Part shown: positions 1,994 to 38,580 of the stretch, piece by piece
How positions within the stretch are numbered: the stretch's first letter is position 1
Layout of the letters: each line of letters opens with the position of its first letter
NCBI GenBank assembly: GCA_934358495.1
Contig: CAKRKO010000002.1
Coordinates: forward strand, 6,634-70,633
Origin: an uncultured Eubacterium sp.
GTDB lineage: Bacteria > Bacillota > Clostridia > Lachnospirales > Lachnospiraceae
Reading direction: 5' to 3'
Length of the DNA stretch: 64,000 nt
Position numbers and translations under genes: made by a program
The notes under the pieces: model-generated
Databases searched by the model: none
Seen by the model: the letters and a program-made list of their open reading frames with translations, nothing else
Told to the model about the DNA's origin: nothing

Positions 1994-2028
1994 GGATGCC
2001 AATGCTTCCTTTATTTAAGTATAAAATT

Positions 2029-2211
2029 GATGTTGGGGTCAAAAGATGCCTTACGAATTGTTCCGTACTTCGTACTCCCACAATTCTACCCAATATTCGC
2101 ATATCGTGAAGCTGACGCTCCACTTTTATGCTCATATCGGGGCGGGTCATTAAGCCATAAAACCACTCCTGTGCAAGCACATCGTGATTTCAGGCTTTTG
2201 ACCCTGGCATC
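2029..2211 (-). mobile_element. MITE-like 183-bp non-autonomous element, copy 1 (inverted relative to copy 2)
   Basis: Differs from 23739..23921 at only 2 of 183 positions. Imperfect 17-bp terminal inverted repeats GATGCCAGGGTCAAAAG / GATGTTGGGGTCAAAAG. Flanked by a direct 7-bp duplication TAAAATT (2022..2028 and 2212..2218). Confidence 0.8.
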
Positions 2212-2244
2212 TAAAATTGCATAAATTATTTTTTGGGGGAATAT

Positions 2245-3579
2245 ATGAAACTTAAGAACATGAACTGGTCTGAACTGAGACCGGAAGTCAAACAAGTCTG
2301 GCAGTTAAGTCTGCCCGCAATTTTAACACAAATCACAACCATTGCCATGCAGTACATTGATTCTGCCATGGTCGGTGCTCTGGGTGCTGCTGCCTCTGCC
2401 GCCATCGGTCTGGTCGTTGCCATGACCTGGCTGTACAACGGTGTGCTCTCTGCCGTTTCTGCCGGTTTTTCTGTGCAAGTGGCACATCACATCGGAGCCA
2501 ATCAGGATATGGAAGCCCGAAATGTTATGCGGCACGGTCTGATCAGTGCCCTGATCATTTCCGGCCTTTTATGTTTGAGCGGTCTCCTGCTCAGTCGTCC
2601 GTTGCCAATCGTGCTGGGCGGTGATCCTGCAATCTGCCCGGATGCAACTGCATACTTTTTTGTATATTCACTGATGATCCCATTTTCACAGTTGAATTCC
2701 CTGACATCGGCATTTTTGCAATGCAGCGGTGATATGGTAACACCAAGTATATTAAATGCCATCATGTGCGCCCTGGATGTAGCATTCAATGCCTTGTTTA
2801 TCCCACGTTTTGGTGTTCTCGGTGCCGGTATTGGAACTGCACTGGCGTGCGCTATCATCAGTCTGATCATGGCATGGCGCTGCTGTGTTTGCAATAAACG
2901 TCTGCGCTTCAGAAGTTCCGATTCACATCCATATAATCGTGATATTCTGAACAAAGCATTTCAAATTGGCATGCCAGTAGCCGTACAGGAGATCACCATG
3001 AACGGCGCCATGGTCATGTCCACTAAAATCATTGCTCCACTGGGAGCCACCGCTATCGCTGCAAACTCTTTTGCCGTCACAGCGGAAAGCCTGTGCTATA
3101 TGCCGGGATACGGCCTCGGCATGGCAGCAACCACACTGGTTGGGCGAAGTATCGGTGCCGGAGAAGTCAAAACTGCCAAACGCTATGGCAATATCAGTAC
3201 CGCCATGGGAGCTATTTTCATGGGCTGTACCGGTGCGGTCATGATGTTCGCCTGTCCGCTGGTTTTCCGGCTTCTGACACCAGATCTGACTGTACAGGCT
3301 ATGGCTGTTCATGTTCTTCGGATTGAATTGCTCGCAGAACCACTTTTTGGCGTGTCCATTGTGGCCGCCGGAGCATTGCGTGGAACCGGAGATACTTTCG
3401 TCCCAAGTCTGATGAACCTTGGCAGTATCTGGATCGTGCGTATCGGTCTGGCGTTGATACTCGTTAAACGCCTTGGTCTCGCAGGAATGTGGATTGCAAT
3501 GGCCATTGAGCTTTGTGTGCGAGGACTACTGATGCTGTATCGGCAACACACTACAAAATACTACCGTTCGCGCACTTAA
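2245..3579 (+). CDS. MATE-family efflux transporter
   Basis: ORF 2233..3579 (TTG in the track), with a likelier ATG at 2245 after GGGGGA. 12-TM-like hydrophobic protein with a typical MATE N-terminus (VWQLSLPAILTQITTIAMQYIDSAMVGALG) and an internal duplication. Confidence 0.85.
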   Translation: MKLKNMNWSELRPEVKQVWQLSLPAILTQITTIAMQYIDSAMVGALGAAASAAIGLVVAMTWLYNGVLSAVSAGFSVQVAHHIGANQDMEARNVMRHGLISALIISGLLCLSGLLLSRPLPIVLGGDPAICPDATAYFFVYSLMIPFSQLNSLTSAFLQCSGDMVTPSILNAIMCALDVAFNALFIPRFGVLGAGIGTALACAIISLIMAWRCCVCNKRLRFRSSDSHPYNRDILNKAFQIGMPVAVQEITMNGAMVMSTKIIAPLGATAIAANSFAVTAESLCYMPGYGLGMAATTLVGRSIGAGEVKTAKRYGNISTAMGAIFMGCTGAVMMFACPLVFRLLTPDLTVQAMAVHVLRIELLAEPLFGVSIVAAGALRGTGDTFVPSLMNLGSIWIVRIGLALILVKRLGLAGMWIAMAIELCVRGLLMLYRQHTTKYYRSRT

Positions 3580-3691: not shown

Positions 3692-3869
3692 AGCAAAATC
3701 GGAGAAAATTATCTCGGTGAGCGATTAAGCGAACGACTGAGTTTCACAAGGTTTTGCGCGAGTGGAAGACGACCATCTTTTATAGGAGTCGAGAACGAGC
3801 GCGATGAAACCGCTGTGAAACGAAGGTAGTGAACGTCTAGCGAGCGAGATAATTTTCTCCGATTTTGCT
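3692..3869. repeat. Long inverted repeat: 25-bp perfect arms around a 128-bp core
   Basis: AGCAAAATCGGAGAAAATTATCTCG at 3692..3716 is the exact reverse complement of 3845..3869. Inner 8-bp arms are GTTTCACA / TGTGAAAC. It lies between the convergent MATE and ABC genes. Confidence 0.75.
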
Positions 3870-13044: not shown

Positions 13045-13222
13045 TTCCAGTGATAGCGCACCATCGTTTCCGATGACAGTTACAATGCTCTTAACATTGT
13101 ACCCAAGCAATATACATCCGATCCTGCATATCCTTTCGGCGTGTCTTCCTTTCCTCTGCCATCTTCTGCGATCTGGTACATCCGACAGATTACTTTTAAT
13201 TCACGCAACCTCTATCTTATAT
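13045..13222 (-). promoter_or_regulatory. Lysine riboswitch (L-box) aptamer controlling dapA-dapB
   Basis: The minus strand has the conserved L-box blocks in order: GATAGAGGTTGCG ... AAAGTAA ... GGAAAGGAAGACACGCCGAAAGG ... TTGCTTGGG ... AACTGTCATCGGAAACGATGGTGCGCTATC. This is collinear with the B. subtilis lysC leader as remembered. Confidence 0.8.
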
Positions 13223-22236: not shown

Positions 22237-23697
<1,461 letters not shown>

Positions 23698-23738
23698 TGG
23701 CGTTTCATGGCATAAATTTTATAATTTAATTTTTACAT

Positions 23739-23921
23739 GATGCCAGGGTCAAAAGCCTGAAACCACGATGTGCTTGCACAGGAGTGGTTTTATGGCTTAA
23801 TGACCCGCCCCGATATGAGCATAAAAGTGGAGCGTCAGCTTCACGATATGCGAATATTGGGTAGAATTGTGGGAGTACGAAGTACGGAACAATTCGTAAG
23901 GCATCTTTTGACCACAACATC
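23739..23921 (+). mobile_element. MITE-like 183-bp non-autonomous element, copy 2
   Basis: Near-identical to copy 1. Flanked by a direct 7-bp duplication TTTACAT (23732..23738 and 23922..23928). Inserted 41 nt after the guaB stop. Confidence 0.8.
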
Positions 23922-23934
23922 TTTACATTTTAGA

Positions 23935-24001
23935 AGGAGAAGAACTCAGATGAGTGCCTTGGGCTAAGACGCCCTGCATCACTAATCTGAGTTCTTCTCC
24001 T
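23935..24001. terminator. Long hairpin between convergent guaB and the lipoprotein gene (possible bidirectional terminator)
   Basis: 16-bp perfect stem AGGAGAAGAACTCAGA / TCTGAGTTCTTCTCCT with a 35-nt partly self-paired loop. There is no clean T-run on either side, so terminator function is uncertain. Confidence 0.4.
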
Positions 24002-24613: not shown

Positions 24614-24710
24614 GATGCCAGGGCCAAAAGCCTGAAACCACGATGTGCTTGCACAGGAGAGGTTTTATGGCTTAATTCCCCCGATATGAGCATAAAAGTG
24701 GAGCGTCAGC
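24614..24710 (+). mobile_element. Truncated, diverged copy (5' half) of the 183-bp element
   Basis: Aligns to the first ~100 nt of copy 2 with 3 substitutions and a 4-nt deletion. It ends after GAGCGTCAGC and has no right end or TSD. Confidence 0.7.
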
Positions 24711-24755
24711 GTAAAGCAGACATTCAGCATCTGCGCTCAGATTATTATAACTATA

Positions 24756-27480: not shown

Positions 27481-30282
27481 TTATTTTACCTGTCCGTTAA
27501 CGATCTGATACGTTTTTCCGTTGGATGTAATTGTCGCATTATGAGAAAAATCAACTTTTCCATCTTTCAGATACCACCAGCCATTCTGGTTTGATGCAAT
27601 TCCCGTAAAGTTGAAATCAACCTTTCCATTTGTAATTTTCCACCAGCCATTGCTGTTTTTGGCTACCGTATTATCGTAGCTCACTTTGCTTCCAACAACA
27701 TGCCACCATGCAGTCTCACCATCTACAGTTCCTTTGATAACATCATTTTTCTGGAACGTTACCTTTCCACCTTCCAGATACCACCAGCCATTGCTGTTCT
27801 GTGCAAAGCCCTGATAGGAGAAATCTACTTTTCCATCTTTGATATACCACCAGCCATTACTGTTTTTGGCTACTGTCGTATCCTTTGTCACTTTACTATC
27901 AACCACATGCCACCATGCATTGACTCCGTCTAAAGAAGCTTTGATCACATCGTTTCGCGCATAAGTAATCTGACCATTTTCTGCATAAAGATAGTCTTTC
28001 CCATTTTTCACAAATCCATTATAGGAAAAATCTACTTTTCCACCTTTCAGATACCAGGTTCCATTCTTATTTGATGCAATTCCATTAAATCCGAAATTCA
28101 CCTGTCCATTTTCGATTTTCCACCAGCCATTGCTGTTTTTCTCCACACCATTATGAGAGAAATCTACCATTCCATTGTTGATATACCACCAGCCGTTACT
28201 ATTTTTTGCTACCGTCGTATCAAAGGTTACTTTGCTGTTCACTACATGCCACCAGCCATTGGTTCCTTTAACAATTCCTTTTATGACGTCGTTCTTTGTA
28301 AATGTAACCTTACCATTTTCAATGTACCACCAACCGTTTTCATTGCTGGCAAATCCATTATAGGTAAAATCAACTTTTCCGCCTTTCAGATACCACCAGC
28401 CATTCTGGTTCTTGGCAACACCTTCATAGTTAAAGTTTACTTTACCGTTCTCCACACGCCACCATCCGTTGGCATTTTTGTCAACTCCGGTATGATTATA
28501 GTCAATCACATCATTTACGTAATAGTACCAGTTTCCGTCTGCCGCTTTGATCACACCATTCAGTTTCTTGTCAATCACATCATTGTTATTGCTTCCATCT
28601 CCATAATTTACAACCGTTATGTAAGATGCACTTGTATATGCATACATATCTGTAAAATCATAAACACCTGTGCTGCTGTTGATTGCTGTTCGTCCACTTT
28701 TTAATACGCCATCGCTCTGAACCTTATAAAAACCATTCGATACATTTGTTCCATCTTTCAATAAGAACGCTACACCATATAAATTTGCTGCATAATATAG
28801 TCTCGCAGAAGAAGTCGTATTTCCATTCCGCACATTCAGATTCATGGACGGTGTCTTATTCACACAACTGATCGGATCTTTGATACCGATCGTGTACCGG
28901 TACTCATCTCTGGATGACAATTTCTGCCCCAGATAGTAAGCATAGTTTGCCGCCTTTTCTCCCCAGTATGGATCTGACGCATACTGTACATTGATACCAC
29001 TTGCCTTATTTCCAAGGTAAGCACCACGATAATTTCCTTTATTGAAATTATTTGGGTTCAGATATCTTTTTGACATATAGGTCTCTGCAAAATCCTTAAT
29101 ACATGTCGATACATTTGCATACTGATTTGCACTCTGTGACGGAGATGCGTCCACTGCATTTAGTCCAAACAGATTATTTTTGTTTTTTGCAATACTGCTG
29201 TCTCCCCAACTGCTTTCATTTGCGGCAATCGCAGCCATTAATAACGCATTCACACCATATGTATTTTGATCATTTACAAAATCACTGCCCAGATCCTTCA
29301 TCTTGGATGTCGATGTAAGCTTAGCATTAATGGTTGTATTCAATTCATCTGCGGTATAGCAGGTTGTACTGCGCAACGGAAGAAACTGATAATAATTGTA
29401 ATATGGCATATTCGGATTTACAGAATGTGCTCTGCTGTCACTGGCATAATCAGAAACCATTGTCGCATAATTTGTATAAAAATAATGTCCGTCGTAACTA
29501 AGATAATTTGTTCCTGCAGACAAATAGGATGGTGCCTTACCATTATTCAGTTTTGCTATATAACTTGTGCCAGATAGATTTCTGGTAATCCTGTGATACA
29601 AAGTTCCTTTTTCTACATAATAATAGCTATAACTTTTTGCACTCTCAAGTGGAATCCGTGTTACTGCACTGCTGCTGACCTTTCCGATCACACCGGCCAT
29701 CATAAATATGTAATTACTGCCCGTTGTACCAAGATAGGCCGCATCTGCGCCATAATAGCCGTTAATATATCCGCTTTTTCCTGTATTGTATTCTGTATAA
29801 GATACATAGGTAGAAGAACTATTGGATTTATTAAAGTTAATCAGATACTGACCAGACAAACTTTTCTCTTCCACTTCCAGGTCCTGCACGGCAACCTCGG
29901 CATCCTGATTTTCCTGTGTTGCGATATCCTGTGTGTTGGTTTCGGATTCCGCAGTTGATGGAATTATTTCCGGATCCTCATTTGAAATATCTGTTTTTTC
30001 TTCATCCACAACAATATCTTCCGTACTGCTGACATCCGGATTTTCCATCTCAGACTTAGAAACACCTTCTATATCTGAAGAATCTGCTTCAACCTTTGTA
30101 CCGTTATTCTGATCTGTTTCAGGCACATCTGCATTGTTTTCCGGCTGACTCACTTCCTGATCAGCCTCTGTCAGCACCACACTTCCATTATCTGCCTGTG
30201 CTGCCAGACAAGGTGTCGCAAACATTACAACACTCAGAAACAATGAAAGAATAACCGCTGTTACCTTATTCTTTTTTTTCAT
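27481..30282 (-). CDS. Secreted peptidoglycan N-acetylglucosaminidase (LytB/LytD-like) with a C-terminal cell-wall-binding repeat array
   Basis: 933 aa. Signal peptide ...[11 protein letters not shown], an acidic linker, and a glucosaminidase block [32 protein letters not shown]...YASDPYWG. Followed by ~18 repeats of the GWW(Y/K/H)-x-NGKV-F type. Confidence 0.85.
27484..28560 (-). repeat. Coding tandem array of ~20-aa cell-wall-binding (CW_binding_1-like) repeats
   Basis: Periodic NGWWY(L/I)xxGKVDFxYxG(F/I)Axx units. The DNA periodicity of ~60 bp also creates long antisense ORFs. Confidence 0.85.
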
Positions 30283-30308: not shown

Positions 30309-32705
30309 TTATTTGTTAACTTTGCCATTTTTTACAGTATAGTTTTTTTCGTCTGCTGTCACAGTTCCATTGTAACCAAAGTTTACTTTGCCGCCTTCCA
30401 GATACCACCAGCCATTCTGGTTATGCGCAATACCGTTATATGTGAAATCTACCAGTCCATCTTTGATGTACCACCAGCCATTGCTGTTTTTCGCTACCGT
30501 CGTATCTTTCGTCAATTTACTTCCAACTACATGCCACCAACCGTAAACACCATCTGCATTTCCTTTGATGACATCATTCTTGCGAAATGTCACTTTGCCG
30601 CCTTCCAGATACCACCAACCATTACTGTTCTCTGCAAAGCCATAAAATCCAAAGTTTACTTTTCCATTTTCAACGCGCCACCAGCCGTTACTATTTTTCT
30701 CAACGCCACTGTGTGTAAAATCTACCATTCCATCTTTGATATACCACCAGCCATTTCCGTTTTTCGCTACGGTCGTATCAAATGTCACTTTACTTCCGAT
30801 TACATGCCACCAGCCATCCGTTCCATTCACAGTACCTTTGATGACATCGATTTTCTTGAAGGTTACCTTTCCTCCTTCCAGGTACCACCAGCCGTTGCTG
30901 TTCTCTGCAAATCCGTTGTAGCCAAAATCTACTTTCCCGTCTTTGATATACCACCAGCCATTACTGTTTTTTGCTACGGTTGTGTCTTTTGTCACCTTGC
31001 TTCCTACTACATGCCACCATGCAGTCTCTCCGTTTACAGCATCTTTGATCACATCCTCTTTATTATATGTAATCTGGCCATTCTCTACATACCACCAGTC
31101 AGCTCCATCACTGGCAAAGCCATTGTATCCAAAGTCTACTTTTCCTCCGGTCAGATACCAGGTCCCGTTTTCATTACTTGCTATTCCCTGGAAGTTAAAG
31201 TTTACTTTTCCATTTTCGATACGCCACCAACCATTGCTATTTTTCGCTACTGTTGTATCTCTGGTCACTTTTCCACCAACGACGTACCACCAGCCGGATT
31301 CCCCATTTACAGTTCCTTGAATAACATCTGTCCTGTCATATTTTACCTGACCACCTTCAATATACCACCAGTCTTCTCCCACATGGGTGAAACCTGTATA
31401 GTCAAAATCTACTTTTCCATTTTTCAAATACCAGGTTCCGTTCTGATTACTTGCTATTCCATAGAAATCAAAATTTGCCTTTCCATTCTCAATCCGAATC
31501 CAGCCTTTACTTGTTTTCGCTACACCTGTGTATGTCTCGTCTCTCTTTCCATTTACGGTGTAGTACCAGTCTCCGGTCTCCGAATCTTCCACAATATCCG
31601 TCTTATTATTGTTATTTTCTTCATATAAATAATCAAGATCCACACAAGTGCTGATACCACCTATTTTGGCTCTGCTGCTACACTGCCAGATATCTATTTT
31701 TCCACCATAGAATTTTCCTTTTTCTGAATCTGTGTAAGAATGGGTATTAAAACGTGCCATCCACACCCCATACTTCTGTCCGAGTGCATCGGTATCCAGA
31801 TCATGTTCCAGCCAGCTTGAACTGGAATATACCATGGCCTGATATCCTGCTGCTGTCACCTTATTACAAAATGCCGTTACATTTTCAGTTTTCTGCACTT
31901 TTGACAGATTTGCATTATTCAGACGTTCCAGGGAGTTTCCATTCTTATCCGTATTTCCGGCATACTCATAATCAATTACTACTGGAAGATCAATCTGATA
32001 ATCTTTGATATGATTTAATGTCCACTCAGCTTCTTCTTCTGCTTCCTGCACATTAATTGCCTGTGAAAAGAAATAAACACCAACTTTTATTCCTGCAGCT
32101 TTTGCGCCTTCAATATAAGTTTTAAACTTATTGTCTCCCCTAGTTGCAATTGTTCCACCGGAAAATCCTCTGTATCCGACCCTGATCATGGCATAATCCA
32201 CACCAGATGCTTTTACTTTTTTCCAGTCGATATTTCCATTATGATAAGACACATCAATTCCTGCTACAATACTTTTTCCATTGGTATTTGCCGGATTATG
32301 TGTATAGGTATTCGTCTTTGAGCCTGTAATACTTCCATTACTGTCTAACGTATAATTTTCCCAGGTTGTAGTTACACCTCTGCTGCTTCTAGCTAAATTT
32401 ACATTATCCAAAGAGAATAATGCAATATTATTGTCATCCACGGCAGATTCTTCTGTATTATCTTCATCCCCATACTGCTGCATGTATGCTCTTGCATTTC
32501 CAGGATCATCCGCATCCCAGTCATCCGGATATTTATCTGTACTTACAGTCTTGGCTGACTGTTCTTCCTCATCCTGTGTTGCTACCGTTTTTTCCACTGT
32601 GCTAACTGTATTTCCCGTAGTAATCACAGACCGCGCATACGCAGGAACTCCACTTACTGACATCGTCAAAGAAGCAATCAGACACATTACTGCAATTCTT
32701 TTCAT
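30309..32705 (-). CDS. Secreted GH25 muramidase (lysozyme) with a C-terminal cell-wall-binding repeat array
   Basis: 798 aa. Signal peptide ...SGVPAYA, then the GH25 block [33 protein letters not shown]...GVYFFSQA...VVIDYEY. Followed by ~21 GWW-type repeats. Only 26 nt from the downstream glucosaminidase gene. Confidence 0.88.
30312..31592 (-). repeat. Coding tandem array of cell-wall-binding repeats
   Basis: Same repeat family as 27484..28560. A 401-aa antisense ORF (30423..31628) is a by-product. Confidence 0.85.
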
Positions 32706-33936: not shown

Positions 33937-36462
33937 TTACATTCTTATCCAACCGTTTGAAACCCAGTAATTATGACCATGATACCATACATTTCCGTTA
34001 TATCCGAAATCTACTTTTCCTCCTCGGATATACCACCAACCATTACTGTTTTTTGCAATTCCATAATATCCAAAATTTACTTTTCCATTCTGAATATACC
34101 ACCAGCCAAGATCATTTTTCTCTACACTGTTGCAGCTAAAGTCTACTTTTCCATTGACGATTCGCCACCAACCATTGCTGTTTTTCGCTACTCCAGTATA
34201 TGTAAAGTCTACTTTTCCTCCTCGAATATACCACCAGCCAAGTTCATTCTTTTCTACACTGTTGCAGCCAAAGTCTACTTTTCCATTGACGATTCGCCAC
34301 CAGCCATTACTGTTTTTTGCTGCTCCAGTATAGGAAAAATCTACTTTTCCTCCTCGAATATACCACCAGCCAAGTTCATTCTTTTCTACACTGTTGCAGT
34401 TGAAGTCTACTTTTCCATTGGCAATCCGCCACCAGCCGTTGCTGTTTTTCTCAACAGAATCTACAAACTGAACCTGACTGTCTTTTACAAACCACCAGCC
34501 TTCTTCTCCATTTACAGTGCCTTTGATAACATCCTTTTTCTGGAAAGAAACTCTGCCATTTTCAATATACCACCAGCTTCCCTCATTCTGTACAAAACCG
34601 GTATAGGAAAAATCTGCTTTTCCATTTCTCACATAAATCCACTGATTATTATCTTTATACAATCCCGTATAAGAAGTTCCTAATTCTGCTGAATAGTCCC
34701 ATTCATCCAAAACAGTTACAGAAAGAGTAATCGTCTTACCCCCTGCAATCGCACTGATAGTTGCACCGGTGCCTTTCTGAAGTCCTTTCAATGTACCTGT
34801 TTCCGGATCATAGGAAATATTTCCAGTTGTACGATAGGTTATATTTTTTGCACCATATACCGGAGTTGTCACTCCTACCAGAGTTGTTGTATGATTTTGT
34901 CTCACATAAACCTGTGTTACACTTTTTCCATTTACATCTCTCCAGTCAACTGTTACATCTCCCTGGCCATGCTTTTGCATCATCTGATACATACCATCTG
35001 CAGCCATAATTCCATTTTCATTATGCCCAATCTGAGAATAGTGAATATCATAATGAACATCGGTGATCCTTGTCGGGACTTTACTGAATCCATAGCGAAT
35101 CGGATAATCAAATTTACCATTATATTTTGAAAAATACTGACGTACACCGGCATCACTTACCCATGCTTCGTTATCATTTGTCACTACATATACGTTATTT
35201 AATTTTGACGATGTACTTCCACCAATTCCATACTGCGCTGCTCGCGGTCCGGTCATAACCAGCTCATCCTCGGTCTCTTTCGATCCGACAGAAGCGCGAA
35301 GCATAATAATCCCACACTTTTCAATGGTTAACTGCTTTGTAATGTCACTGTACATAGTATAAAAATCGTCATAATAATCGGAAGCACTTCGATATCTGTC
35401 CGCAGTTTCGCCCTGAAGCCAATACATCAGTCGATGACCTTCTGTATAATGTCCGGATGCGATTTCTGCTTCATATACTTTCTGCGCCAGTTTGCTGAGT
35501 GTTATTGCTCTCTCATATACACTCTGTCCCGGAATCCAGCTTGCAATTGCAGTATCACTCCAGGCTACATTTACTGTCCATACTTTTTCGCCTGTCAGTC
35601 TGTTCCATTCATAAGCCAATGCACTATCTGGACCAGTCTTACCTTCCCCTTCTGAAGTCAACGTATTTAATGGATATTCCAGTGTTTTTCCTGACAAAGA
35701 ACTGGCACTGTTCATTGAGCCAGCTATAAAATCTGCTGCATTTTCAGAATTACAAGTCTCTGAAAAATTAATACCTGAAATATTCTTTGACCAGCTCCAT
35801 ACAGTTGGTGCATAGGTTGAATACACGGTTCCAATTTCACAGGCTACAGACTTATTCAGCTGATATCCGGTATTAGCGGAACACATTCCTTCCATGTTGC
35901 TCTGTCCCATCAAATACATGATCGTCAGTGGTGCTGCTTCCACAGTCACATGAACATAAATTTTATCGTATGCTGCCTCACTATTTTCTTCCTTTGGAAC
36001 CAAAACCAGAAGTGCTGTACCAACGCCACTTGCCCTCACATTACTGTCATCTGTCTGAGTAAGTACTTCATCTGATTCCTGCTCCTGTACTTCTCCCGTT
36101 TTCACTGGATGTGATTTGCTCTCTAAATTTGTTACATGATCAATTTTATAGTCATTATATTCTTCATGATCTTTATCCTTATAAATAGAATATCTGTCAT
36201 CATATGACAACATTACCGGTTGCTCCTGCACTCTAATATTCTTGCCCAATAATTGTTCAGATATCACATTGTCCTGTTCTACTGCTGCTTGTTCAGACAC
36301 ATCCTTTTCATCCACATCACTCGAGTCTTCCATTTCTGTCTTTGTCGCATCTGTAATATCTGATGTATCAGCTAAATCTGTTGCATACACAGTACCTGTT
36401 GTCATTGTCAAAATCATAAGACCGCAGAGTAATGCAGAAATTCGTCTTTTCCAATTTTTCAT
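33937..36462 (-). CDS. Secreted carbohydrate O-acetylesterase-like enzyme (GQSNM / SASA-DUF303 type) with Ig-like domain and cell-wall-binding repeats
   Basis: 841 aa. Signal peptide ...TGTVYA, then the catalytic blocks MYLMGQSNMEGM and YWLQGETAD typical of sialate-O-acetylesterase-like SGNH esterases. An Ig-like segment (ITYRTTGNISYDPETGTLKGLQKGTGATISA) follows, then ~11-12 GWW repeats. Confidence 0.7.
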   Translation of the reverse strand: MKNWKRRISALLCGLMILTMTTGTVYATDLADTSDITDATKTEMEDSSDVDEKDVSEQAAVEQDNVISEQLLGKNIRVQEQPVMLSYDDRYSIYKDKDHEEYNDYKIDHVTNLESKSHPVKTGEVQEQESDEVLTQTDDSNVRASGVGTALLVLVPKEENSEAAYDKIYVHVTVEAAPLTIMYLMGQSNMEGMCSANTGYQLNKSVACEIGTVYSTYAPTVWSWSKNISGINFSETCNSENAADFIAGSMNSASSLSGKTLEYPLNTLTSEGEGKTGPDSALAYEWNRLTGEKVWTVNVAWSDTAIASWIPGQSVYERAITLSKLAQKVYEAEIASGHYTEGHRLMYWLQGETADRYRSASDYYDDFYTMYSDITKQLTIEKCGIIMLRASVGSKETEDELVMTGPRAAQYGIGGSTSSKLNNVYVVTNDNEAWVSDAGVRQYFSKYNGKFDYPIRYGFSKVPTRITDVHYDIHYSQIGHNENGIMAADGMYQMMQKHGQGDVTVDWRDVNGKSVTQVYVRQNHTTTLVGVTTPVYGAKNITYRTTGNISYDPETGTLKGLQKGTGATISAIAGGKTITLSVTVLDEWDYSAELGTSYTGLYKDNNQWIYVRNGKADFSYTGFVQNEGSWWYIENGRVSFQKKDVIKGTVNGEEGWWFVKDSQVQFVDSVEKNSNGWWRIANGKVDFNCNSVEKNELGWWYIRGGKVDFSYTGAAKNSNGWWRIVNGKVDFGCNSVEKNELGWWYIRGGKVDFTYTGVAKNSNGWWRIVNGKVDFSCNSVEKNDLGWWYIQNGKVNFGYYGIAKNSNGWWYIRGGKVDFGYNGNVWYHGHNYWVSNGWIRM
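33940..34690 (-). repeat. Coding array of cell-wall-binding repeats with a 132-bp higher-order period
   Basis: TCTACACTGTTGCAG recurs at 34121, 34253 and 34385 (132-bp spacing). The units encode [42 protein letters not shown]. Confidence 0.85.
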
Positions 36463-36612: not shown

Positions 36613-38580
36613 TTAGAATACAATTACTTTTGTTCCGTTTGGAATATTGTCATGGATCCATTTTGCTTCACTTAAAGCAAGTCTTACACATCCATGAGAT
36701 AACTGCATACCAAGACGTCCGTCCTGAATACTTGTTTTACTTCCTTTGTTGTAAATAACTGAATGGAATAAATAATCTCCATAGAACTGTGTATAATACC
36801 AGCAATCATAGGTTGGCTTTCCAAAGGATAAGCCTCGACCTGTTACTTTAAATTCTCCTTTTACTGTCGGTGTAGAAGGTTTACCCGGACTACAGGAAAT
36901 ATATTTAACAGTTGACCAATTTCCCTGTGACCCTGCAAAAACAGCTACCTTGCAAGCAGATGTATCTGTAACAATTAACCAACTTGTGTCACTGGATGAA
37001 GTGGCTGCTCTGGCAGCGATCTGAGGACTTACCCCCTGCATCGTCACTCGACCATTTGATATATAGCAGTTTGATCCATTCCACTGCATACTACCATTGT
37101 ATCCAAAATCTACCTTACCTCCACGAATATACCAAGCTCCATTACTATTTACTGCAATACCATTATAGCCAAAATCTACTTTTCCGTTAGCGATTCGCCA
37201 CCAGCCAAGGTTGTTTTTTGCTACTCCTGTATAACTGAAATCTACTTTTCCTCCGCGGATGTACCACCAGCCAAGATTATTCTTCTCTACACTATTACAA
37301 TTAAAATCTACTTTTCCATTGACGATTCGCCACCAGCCAAGACTGTTCTTTGCTACTCCTGTATAACTGAAATCTACTTTTCCTCCGCGGATGTACCACC
37401 AGCCAAAATCATTCTTCTCTACACTATTGCAGCCAAAATCTACTTTACCTTTGACGATCCGCCACCAGCCAAGACTATTTTTTGCTACTCCTGTATAGGA
37501 AAAATCTACAGCTCCATTTGTGATTTTCCACCAGCCGTTAGAATTTTTCTCTACGCTATTGCAGGTAAAGTCTACTTTTCCGTTAGCAACACGCCACCAA
37601 CCATATGCATTTTTATCTACACCAGTATGACTATCATCTACTTTTCCGCCACGGACATACCACCAGCCATCTTCACTCTTTACGATATCATTACAGCTGA
37701 AATCTACTTTTCCGTTGACGATTCGCCAAGAACCATTTTCATTACTTTTTACACCAGTATAAGAAAAATCTACCTGACCATCTTTTACATACCACCAGCC
37801 GTTTGCATTTTTTGCGACATTGGTATAGGTACGGTCAATCAAGCCATTGTGATAGTAGTACCAATTGCCATCTTCCTGGTTTTTGATAATACCATTGACC
37901 ATGTCAGCTGTTACATTTACGGATGCTGATACCTTTTTTTCTGAATCCCATGCCGTGATCGTAGCGATACCATTTTTCATCGGTGTAATGGTACCTGTCT
38001 GTGCATCTACCGCAATAACGCCCGGATCAGAAGATTCCCAGATCAAATCCTGATTGGATGCATTTTCCGGTGAAACAACGGTATCCAATTCAAATGGTGT
38101 GGCATCTGTTACATGCACTTCTTTTACACCAAATGAGATAGATGACACCGGAACCCAGTCTACATCTTCTTTTACATCACTCACTGCCTCACATTTTTCA
38201 TCGGTACAATGTTTACTTTCCGTACCTTTTTGGTCTGGTGTGGCAGCTTTATCGATGGTGTATTTATCACTCCAGATATGTTTTTCTTCATCTGTATGTA
38301 CTGTAGCGGTATATTCCTGTCCCGTTTCTGTACAGGTATACTTTATCTTCTGATAAACAGAGTCTGTATCCTCACTTTTCACTACTTCATACTCTTTGAC
38401 ATCATCTATATGTCCATTGTGTCGAATCCACATTTCCTGCTGTTCCGCATCCGTTTTTTCTTCCTGCGTCCCTGTCACAGGTACAGTGGCAGAAGCGTCT
38501 TTTGCCAGCGCAGGCACAGAACACATACCCGTGAGCAGGGCAGCTGTTGCCAGCACCATGATTGCCTTGTTTAATTTCAT
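36613..38580 (-). CDS. Secreted L,D-transpeptidase (YkuD domain) with Big_2 domain and an internal cell-wall-binding repeat array
   Basis: ATG at 38580 after AAAGGTGGG. Signal peptide MKLNKAIMVLATAALLTGMCSVPALA, a Big_2-like segment (VVSPENASNQDLIWESSDPGVIAVDAQTGTITPMKNGIATITA), ~14 GWW repeats, and a C-terminal YkuD motif LSHGCVRL. Confidence 0.85.
   Translation of the reverse strand: MKLNKAIMVLATAALLTGMCSVPALAKDASATVPVTGTQEEKTDAEQQEMWIRHNGHIDDVKEYEVVKSEDTDSVYQKIKYTCTETGQEYTATVHTDEEKHIWSDKYTIDKAATPDQKGTESKHCTDEKCEAVSDVKEDVDWVPVSSISFGVKEVHVTDATPFELDTVVSPENASNQDLIWESSDPGVIAVDAQTGTITPMKNGIATITAWDSEKKVSASVNVTADMVNGIIKNQEDGNWYYYHNGLIDRTYTNVAKNANGWWYVKDGQVDFSYTGVKSNENGSWRIVNGKVDFSCNDIVKSEDGWWYVRGGKVDDSHTGVDKNAYGWWRVANGKVDFTCNSVEKNSNGWWKITNGAVDFSYTGVAKNSLGWWRIVKGKVDFGCNSVEKNDFGWWYIRGGKVDFSYTGVAKNSLGWWRIVNGKVDFNCNSVEKNNLGWWYIRGGKVDFSYTGVAKNNLGWWRIANGKVDFGYNGIAVNSNGAWYIRGGKVDFGYNGSMQWNGSNCYISNGRVTMQGVSPQIAARAATSSSDTSWLIVTDTSACKVAVFAGSQGNWSTVKYISCSPGKPSTPTVKGEFKVTGRGLSFGKPTYDCWYYTQFYGDYLFHSVIYNKGSKTSIQDGRLGMQLSHGCVRLALSEAKWIHDNIPNGTKVIVF
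37039..37869 (-). repeat. Coding array of cell-wall-binding repeats, also with a 132-bp higher-order period
   Basis: TCTACACTAT recurs at 37286 and 37418 (132-bp spacing). The units CNSVEKN(D/N)(F/L)[20 protein letters not shown](S/N)LGWWRI(V/A)NGKVDF closely resemble those in 33940..34690. Confidence 0.85.

Follow-up and report, generated by a model that had tools for sequence, protein, structure and literature searches.

A 64-kb stretch of DNA from an uncultured Eubacterium sp. of the Lachnospiraceae (64,000 nucleotides of contig CAKRKO010000002.1 in assembly GCA_934358495.1, hereafter the window) carries a 183-bp repeat with the ends of a transposable element and the interior of a structured RNA. 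Which of the two is it, and if it is both, what moves it and why does it keep its fold? An earlier note on the window had taken the repeat for a recently active, non-autonomous element of the DDE type with an RNA-like interior, and the present analysis bears this out through an empty insertion site, target-site duplications (TSDs) across the family, an insertion sequence (IS) with the same termini, and covariation within the interior. The best explanation, to which we assign a probability of roughly 0.85, is that the repeat is a miniature inverted-repeat transposable element (MITE), a non-autonomous derivative or hitch-hiker of a 1.85-1.93-kb IS1182-like IS family of gut Lachnospiraceae and other Clostridia. 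The MITE is at the same time the Clostridiales-1 RNA motif of Rfam (RF01699).

Two full copies lie in the window in opposite orientations. Copy 1 (2029-2211, with the RNA-sense strand of the Rfam orientation on the minus strand; 228 bits with our own model R1) is the reverse complement of copy 2 (23739-23921, RNA-sense strand plus, in the 3′ region of guaB), and the two are 99% identical over their 183 bp. The two differences that had been counted earlier fall at element nt 25, where copy 1 has U and copy 2 has C opposite G49, giving a U·G in place of a C-G pair as the earlier note had described, and at nt 176, inside the right terminal inverted repeat (TIR). On the outward-reading strands the termini form imperfect 17-bp inverted repeats, GATGTTGGGGTCAAAAG at the right or RNA 3′ end (2029-2045 in copy 1, plus strand, read outward-in) and GATGCCAGGGTCAAAAG at the left or RNA 5′ end (2195-2211, minus strand). 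Each copy is bracketed by its own pair of identical 7-mers, TAAAATT at 2022-2028 and 2212-2218 and TTTACAT at 23732-23738 and 23922-23928; these TSDs, also recognized before, can be read directly at both copies, and for copy 2 in the empty-site alignment as well. The earlier count of two copies is right for full-length elements and missed a third, truncated and decayed one (copy 3, approximately 24614-24730, plus strand; model positions 1-105, E = 2e-21), a 5′-only remnant that holds the left TIR with one mismatch, stem P2, and stem P3 in part, as far as ...GTCAGC, a short stretch inside being deleted. A search for the TIR 17-mer pattern with at most two mismatches finds five sites in the window, the fifth of which is part of copy 3, against a mean of 0.72 in shuffled sequences, none of which reaches five.

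Copy 2 lies 41 nt past the stop codon of guaB (22240-23697) and just upstream of a long GC-rich hairpin, ggagaagaactcagat...atctgagttcttctcc (approximately 23935-24000), which stands between guaB and a convergent 137-aa gene and is probably a bidirectional terminator. Copy 1 directs its RNA-sense strand away from a MATE gene, the ATG of which (2245) is 33 nt from the terminus. The 183-bp element is unlikely to code for protein, in line with the earlier remark that it holds no credible open reading frame (ORF), because lengths in the family (181-205 nt) differ by non-multiples of three and substitutions in the stems are compensatory. The earlier statement that no transposase is present holds for homologues of the partner transposase described below, none of which was found in the window by tblastn; other transposase families were outside that search.

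In a scan with the Rfam covariance model, both full copies match RF01699 over the full length of the model with 138.2 bits, where the gathering score is 48 (copy 1 at 2044-2212 on the minus strand, model positions 1-166 of 166, E = 1e-31; copy 2 at 23738-23906). The model starts 1 nt beyond the left terminus and ends 15 nt before the right terminus; the right TIR is therefore not in the Rfam model. All 17 of the TIR-bounded elements tested from other genomes also score as RF01699, at 60-157 bits. The Clostridiales-1 RNA motif and the 183-bp MITE are one object, of which RF01699 covers the left terminus and the interior. Clostridiales-1 was described from 206 representatives in Clostridiales and the human gut as probably an RNA and not cis-regulatory, without a proposed function or any mention of mobility (Weinberg et al., 2010; PMC2864571). 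Rfam labels it ‘Gene; sRNA’, and in a 2026 preprint it is still placed among regulatory RNAs. The element studied here has in common with the published motif the sequence family, the four-stem architecture, the covariation, and the Clostridiales and human-gut habitat (PMC2864571), while it differs from the free-standing small RNA (sRNA) of that description in being bounded by TIRs and TSDs, in being polymorphic for insertion, and in having its termini in common with an IS. Nothing in the literature searched connects Clostridiales-1 or RF01699 with transposition, and the readable part of the supplementary alignment of Weinberg et al. gave only low-complexity marginal matches. The RNA motif was on record already, and MITEs as a class are well known; as far as the literature searched shows, the apparent novelty is that the MITE is Clostridiales-1, that its partner IS is identified, and that insertions cluster just upstream of start codons. 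The earlier note could name neither an RNA family nor an IS family; the first is now RF01699, and for the second the partner is IS1182-like at a score under the cut-off. It had also held a match to a known structured RNA to speak against mobility; the match exists (138 bits), yet mobility stands, the RNA motif being the MITE itself.

Could the repeat nonetheless be an ordinary chromosomal sRNA gene that was duplicated, with end repeats that are part of the RNA or coincidental? The strong RF01699 match would fit such a gene, as would the original description of a non-cis-regulatory RNA in which mobility is not mentioned. Comparison of strains makes this barely credible. Among conspecific contigs that encode a GuaB protein identical to that of the window, five (L254-L257 and L259) correspond to the filled allele (the window, L258, and L260) minus exactly 190 nt, the 183-bp element plus 7, and retain one copy of TTTACAT. 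The element is recently mobile, being polymorphic among strains with identical GuaB, and so precise a presence or absence, with a single 7-mer at the empty site, is at odds with a resident sRNA gene. Copy 3 is also absent from the five contigs with the empty site, where the junction is rearranged. Empty sites, which the earlier note had proposed to look for, were thus found for copy 2 and not for copy 1. The latter is present in six of six contigs carrying an identical MATE protein, two of which break inside the element, and no empty site could be aligned because the MATE orthologues without the element (88-92% identity) have another upstream neighbour, AsnA. Two further differences between strains were seen around copy 2: a tandem duplication of 10 nt (cgtaaatttt) directly behind the guaB stop (approximately 23710) in L255 and L256, absent from the window and other strains, and a 126-aa variant of the 137-aa downstream gene in L254, L257, and L259.

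Outside this species, a scan for the terminal motif with one genome per species gave 120 tiles, approximately 75 of them from Lachnospiraceae and other Clostridia, with TIR-bearing tiles spanning Blautia, Lachnospira, Butyrivibrio, Dorea, Roseburia, Coprococcus, and others; several element-bearing tiles come from one metagenome-assembled genome, and contigs frequently break within the element. Full-length relatives have termini identical in kind and interiors 65-80% identical. The imperfect inverted ends pointed out in the earlier note are nearly invariant across 19 aligned elements, and this includes the right TIR, though it lies outside the RNA model, which again speaks against an sRNA gene. 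Exact flanking direct repeats of at least 7 bp are found at 26 of 64 non-redundant elements from genome and metagenome loci (16 of 7 bp, 8 of 8 bp, 1 of 9 bp, and 1 of 10 bp), versus 0.44% when left and right flanks are drawn from different loci. The repeat differs from locus to locus, with a consensus of ATATAAT, so that the 7-mers are not part of a conserved element as an sRNA gene with built-in end repeats would have it. This target consensus coincides with the sigma-70 -10 box. Moreover, elements occur in both orientations relative to neighbouring genes, no promoter or terminator of the element's own was found, and there are no terminator-like sites inside the element on either strand, all of which sit poorly with an sRNA gene.

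Flanking repeats also distinguish intact elements from their remnants. An exact repeat is present at 24 of 43 elements of 131-260 nt, and an intact duplication at none of the ten shortest (30-60 nt). Shorter elements that have the same termini (35-120 nt) derive from internal deletion; in these, for example, the left terminus and P2 are joined to the right terminus or the two termini abut. We considered whether TIR pairs of 35-80 nt might form an independently mobile mini-family for which the fold is dispensable, and rejected this, as they too are products of internal deletion, and in the shortest class the flanking repeats are all decayed. At orthologous loci of two Eubacteriales genomes (L020 6211-6313 and L066 5644-5811), the element stands at the same site between the same flanking proteins with different internal deletions (103 vs 168 nt); copies therefore decay in place.

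The longer element with the same ends and a transposase that the earlier note had suggested looking for was located by a scan of unbinned metagenome contigs. An IS of 1888 bp (L326 1786-3673) is flanked by a perfect 7-bp duplication, ATTCTAT, contains a single 533-aa ORF, and ends in GATGCCGGGGTCAAAAG and, on the reverse complement, GATGTAGGGGTCAAAAC. The 17-bp termini GATRYYRGGGTCAAAAG are common to the MITE and the 1.85-1.93-kb IS family, and that the same termini bound a transposase-encoding IS is a further argument against an sRNA gene. The 533-aa protein contains DUF772, DDE_Tnp_1, and DDE_Tnp_1_6, all above Pfam cut-offs, and among NCBIfam models it matches the IS1182 family transposase best, in an end-to-end alignment (protein 44-517 against model 35-487 of 488). 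Transposase homologues abut the same terminus in five other contigs (L266, with 62% identity and a frameshift, L308, L082, L267, and L301). Two more IS variants, traced by exact protein identity and measuring 1931 and 1891 bp, stand at 17 different sites with termini GATATTGGGGTCAAAAGG... and GATGTTGGGGTCAAAAGG...; exact 7-8-bp duplications flank 6 of these 17 copies, and the remainder may represent insertions of some age, products of recombination, or chimeras of assembly. Members of the transposase family number more than 3000, most of them on contigs of approximately 2 kb. Among the approximately 75 Clostridia genome tiles none has a transposase adjoining the terminus, and similarity inward from the terminus never exceeds 240 nt; the IS is likely missing from binned genomes because it assembles alone as ~2-kb contigs. 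In the isolate Lachnospiraceae bacterium MD308 (L082), the IS runs off the contig end (1-296), the transposase N-terminus being 95 nt inside the TIR, and a MITE-like left-end fragment lies 3.5 kb away (3789-3860); IS and MITE fragment therefore co-occur in a culturable strain.

Four IS copies (L326 1786-3673, L381 1323-3254, L391 1367-3257, and L266 5009-6854) carry a further inverted repeat in subterminal position, TTGAAAAMTTCAWA, 45-65 nt in from either end, and at each tip a small hairpin that takes in the TIR core, GGGGTCAAAAGCCCC / GGGGTTTTGACCCC. BLAST against plasmids gave no match, and against phages only unannotated faecal virome contigs. Viral contigs picked out by the TIR pattern were mostly chance matches, and L239, with a TIR pair 1.6 kb apart, is an unrelated phage. 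A candidate composite (L120) and distant TIR pairs in L275, L318, L324, L371, and L373 were likewise set aside, as ordinary genes lie between the TIR matches, which are due to chance or degenerate.

From the common termini and the duplication length we infer that the 533-aa DDE transposase would bind the MITE termini and move the element in trans. Insertion was into AT-rich sites with the consensus ATATAAT, with duplication of 7 and sometimes 8 bp. The RNA would be made passively, within transcripts of neighbouring genes, since the element has no room for its own promoter and no terminator was seen.

A number of observations weigh against an IS1182-like partner or against mobility by its means. 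The 533-aa protein scores 145.6 bits, under the NCBIfam IS1182 equivalog cut-off of 270, and is for this reason called IS1182-like and not a confirmed member. Its IS resembles the IS1182 family in length (1.85-1.93 kb), in its one ORF, in its DUF772 and DDE_Tnp_1/DDE_Tnp_1_6 domains, and in its short TIRs, and differs from it as a distant branch by that score, in a comparison with the NCBIfam model. The MITE and the IS have in common only their termini plus approximately 40 nt at one end (~17-41 nt), a stretch that includes the hairpin GGGGTCAAAAG...TTGACCCC; the MITE is therefore not a simple internal deletion of the IS. The Clostridiales-1 fold is absent from the sampled IS copies in the Rfam scan, and a derivation of the fold from an untranslated region of the IS was rejected on the same result. 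No IS copy was found in the window or in any contig known from this species. Lastly, the flanking duplications that the earlier note expected at additional copies are found in exact form at only some of them: about half of the elements have no exact flanking repeat, many being off by a single mismatch, which may reflect the age of the element.

If the element is mobile, the question becomes what its fold is for. In the Rfam alignment, the minimum free energy (MFE) fold, and the covariation analysis, three hairpins stand on the minus strand of copy 1: P2, which is long and has a conserved GCUUGC at its tip (2145-2203, element nt 9-67), P3, with a GA/GA internal loop (2089-2141, nt 71-123), and P4 (2055-2086, nt 126-157). 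The first two hairpins of the earlier note correspond to P2 and the tip of P3; its third, TACGAA(N11)TTCGTA, is in the wrong register, and P4 is supported as GAAUUGU-GGGA-GUAC(GAA)GUAC-GGA-ACAAUUC. The left TIR belongs to the fold, nt 1-6 being part of P1 and nt 9-12 the base of P2. In P1 the left TIR covaries with an internal GGYATC, with nt 4 (G or A) matching the corresponding position of GGCAUC or GGUAUC in two sets (GC:15 vs AU:12 and GC:15 vs AU:9), and a putative transposase-binding end is thus built into the fold.

The Rfam structure was transferred to the window copies to give a model of our own, with which 37 genome-locus and 36 metagenome matches were aligned. Paired positions hold in 92.8% of the genome set and 93.9% of the metagenome set, compared with 34-42% and 31-43% in slid controls with 3′ partners shifted by 1-3 columns; both alignments were fitted to the structure, so the percentages paired are inflated, which tells against reading them at face value. 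Changes on both sides are seen in 55 of 60 pairs in the genome set and 49 of 60 in the metagenome set, and compensatory cells number 409 (52-82 in the slid controls) and 186 (22-33), respectively. An independent alignment with MAFFT and RNAalifold recovered the core pairs of P2, P3, and P4, with compensatory changes in 19 of 34 predicted pairs. The interior fold thus appears to be under selection, kept by compensatory change across subfamilies that are 65-80% identical. Furthermore, the strands are not equivalent. Among full-length copies G·U exceeds A·C by 38:17 and 46:10 (84:27 in total), which favours the Rfam strand, though a 3:1 bias among related sequences is not proof of RNA. The sense strand, at an MFE of -79.1 kcal/mol (z = -8.3), takes on the very structure of Rfam and leaves the right TIR unpaired; the antisense strand reaches only -58.8 kcal/mol (z = -4.3), with the two termini paired together. 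The G·U excess and the much lower folding energy of the sense strand suggest that the acting form of the fold is RNA of this strand.

The main rival reading is that the same covariation reflects a fold that works as DNA. Its three local palindromes would extrude as hairpins, as a cruciform, or in a transient single strand, joining the TIRs for the transpososome despite the stiffness of ~150 bp of duplex, and what selection preserves would then be efficient transposition. The simplest reason for a non-autonomous element to show covariation throughout its family would be an effect of the fold on its own propagation, and P1 sets the left terminus beside the right TIR. In addition, full-fold elements retain flanking repeats (24/43) and the 30-60-nt deleted derivatives do not (0/10), and the subterminal repeat TTGAAAAMTTCAWA is present in the IS and absent from the MITE, which may need another means of pairing its ends. 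We consider a DNA fold unlikely on the strength of two observations. A duplex cruciform needs both strands to fold, at variance with 84 G·U vs 27 A·C and a difference of 20 kcal/mol between strands, and the conserved loop and junction nucleotides (GCUUGC, CCCGCC, GA/GA, and GGGAG) are not required of a mere DNA hinge. Deleted derivatives of 69 and 153 nt that keep exact repeats point the same way, weakly, given that deletion in situ would leave them too.

An RNA that binds a specific partner would explain the conserved loops and the strand asymmetry, and this has led us to consider a trans-acting RNA that serves the transposase as decoy, scaffold, or guide and affects the site or frequency of IS and MITE transposition. 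With the left TIR inside P1 and P2, such an RNA would show the putative transposase-binding sequence in structured form, and it could account for a strong positional bias of insertions (see below) that is otherwise unexplained. We hold it to be very unlikely all the same. We know of no RNA cofactor for IS1182/IS5-type DDE transposases; the IS, which lacks the fold, makes the same duplications, and the sampled IS copies do not obviously show the positional bias. The broader proposal that the four-stem RNA takes part in the life cycle of a DDE transposon, recruiting or licensing the IS1182-like transposase or directing insertions upstream of ribosome-binding sites, is a long shot; if true, an RNA-assisted MITE would be a mechanism not described for DDE-type IS.

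The nearest parallels to such an arrangement are the ωRNAs of IS200/IS605 TnpB and IscB and the IS110 bridge RNA, in which a structured RNA at a transposon end includes terminal sequence. The element studied here is alike in that its RNA motif stands at a transposon end and includes the terminal sequence. Those systems have no TIRs or TSDs, the RNA lies beside the nuclease or recombinase gene, and a guide function is demonstrated; here the transposase is of the DDE type, the IS itself is without the fold, and any function of the RNA is putative.

The position of insertions relative to genes offers another view of what keeps the element. Only 4 of 47 elements of 130-260 nt lie inside predicted ORFs. 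Of the 43 intergenic elements, 21 (49%) precede a predicted start codon by 16-45 nt and stand immediately before a visible ribosome-binding site, compared with 12.7% of AT-rich intergenic 7-mers and 11.1% of ATATAAT-like 7-mers at the same loci (binomial p ~1e-8); the 0-15 nt next to a start codon are free of elements. Of the 17 sampled IS copies, 1-2 at most come as near to a start as those 21 elements, and the absence of an obvious start-codon bias in this small sample hints that the small element is selectively retained and not that the target is chosen. With respect to the downstream gene, 12 elements are co-oriented and 7 divergent; the lack of a significant orientation bias weighs against a strictly sense-strand role in the 5′ untranslated region, which would predict one.

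One signal that would work in either orientation is a -35 box that faces outward. Both TIRs contain such a box, an invariant TTGACC 8 nt from the tip, and copies might be retained because this box forms hybrid promoters for the adjacent gene, the fold being irrelevant to the benefit. A symmetric outward signal fits the finding that half of the intergenic copies stand 16-45 nt upstream of a start in either orientation, and the scarcity of sampled IS copies at such positions makes the bias look specific to the MITE and not driven by the transposase. Copy 1 provides a candidate, TTGACC followed by an 18-nt spacer and TAAATT in the flank (2198-2227, plus strand), which ends 17 nt before the start codon of the MATE gene; it comes from a consensus scan of the window in which hits are at chance expectation. 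A properly spaced -10-like hexamer (16-18 nt) is present at only ~7-9 of 23 gene-proximal termini, whose AT-rich flanks give frequent chance matches, and a hybrid promoter at every gene-proximal terminus is not supported. The predicted transcript leaders would be only ~10-20 nt, and the covariation of the interior is left unexplained. As a full account, retention for a promoter is improbable; the outward promoter may contribute to retention whatever the fold does.

The MATE gene of the window (2245-3579) is not the only one of its kind to adjoin the element. Distinct MATE efflux genes, with 21-25% mutual identity, do so in 5 of ~60 Clostridia loci (the window, L008, L030, L062, and L101, the last with a MATE gene on each side), which adds something to the case for a promoter. 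Chance could explain the adjacency, since these genomes have many MATE genes; so could selection for a change in the expression of efflux genes.

For the fold of the MITE we tentatively favour, at somewhat less than even odds, a role in cis, as a module by which the element costs its host little or becomes an asset. Such a module would be compact, terminator-free in both orientations, and would leave the downstream ribosome-binding site free, and it would fit the accumulation of copies 16-45 nt upstream of start codons. There are precedents for small elements that live among genes in this way. Correia elements of Neisseria, RUP and BOX of Streptococcus pneumoniae, and ERIC are small, non-coding, intergenic, multi-copy, and TIR-bounded; they are co-transcribed with their neighbours and can alter their expression, and some carry outward promoter elements. 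To our knowledge, these elements fold mainly by pairing of their TIRs into one long hairpin. The MITE described here instead forms a closed junction of three hairpins with conserved loops, compensatory change, and an unpaired right TIR, and it would depend on a different transposase family.

Two other features of the window are unrelated to the MITE. A lysine riboswitch aptamer (RF00168) is found at 13046-13222 on the minus strand, with 105 bits against a gathering score of 30. Four diverged tandem-repeat blocks (27537-28493, 30368-31531, 33990-34702, and 37023-37850) have a 66-nt (22-codon) period and larger spacings of 207/273 nt; they resemble the genes of several paralogues with repeat domains, the repeats being possibly of a cell-wall-binding kind.

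If Clostridiales-1 is a mobile element, its counts would mirror copy number and transposition history and not regulation. Mobility would also account for the abundance of the motif and explain why assemblies of Lachnospiraceae break at these sites. The question would become a sharper one, namely why a non-autonomous element keeps a complex fold by compensatory evolution, and with the partner transposase and termini now defined it is testable. With copies clustered 16-45 nt ahead of start codons and an outward -35 box at either end, the family may rewire adjacent genes, efflux transporters included, in common gut commensals.

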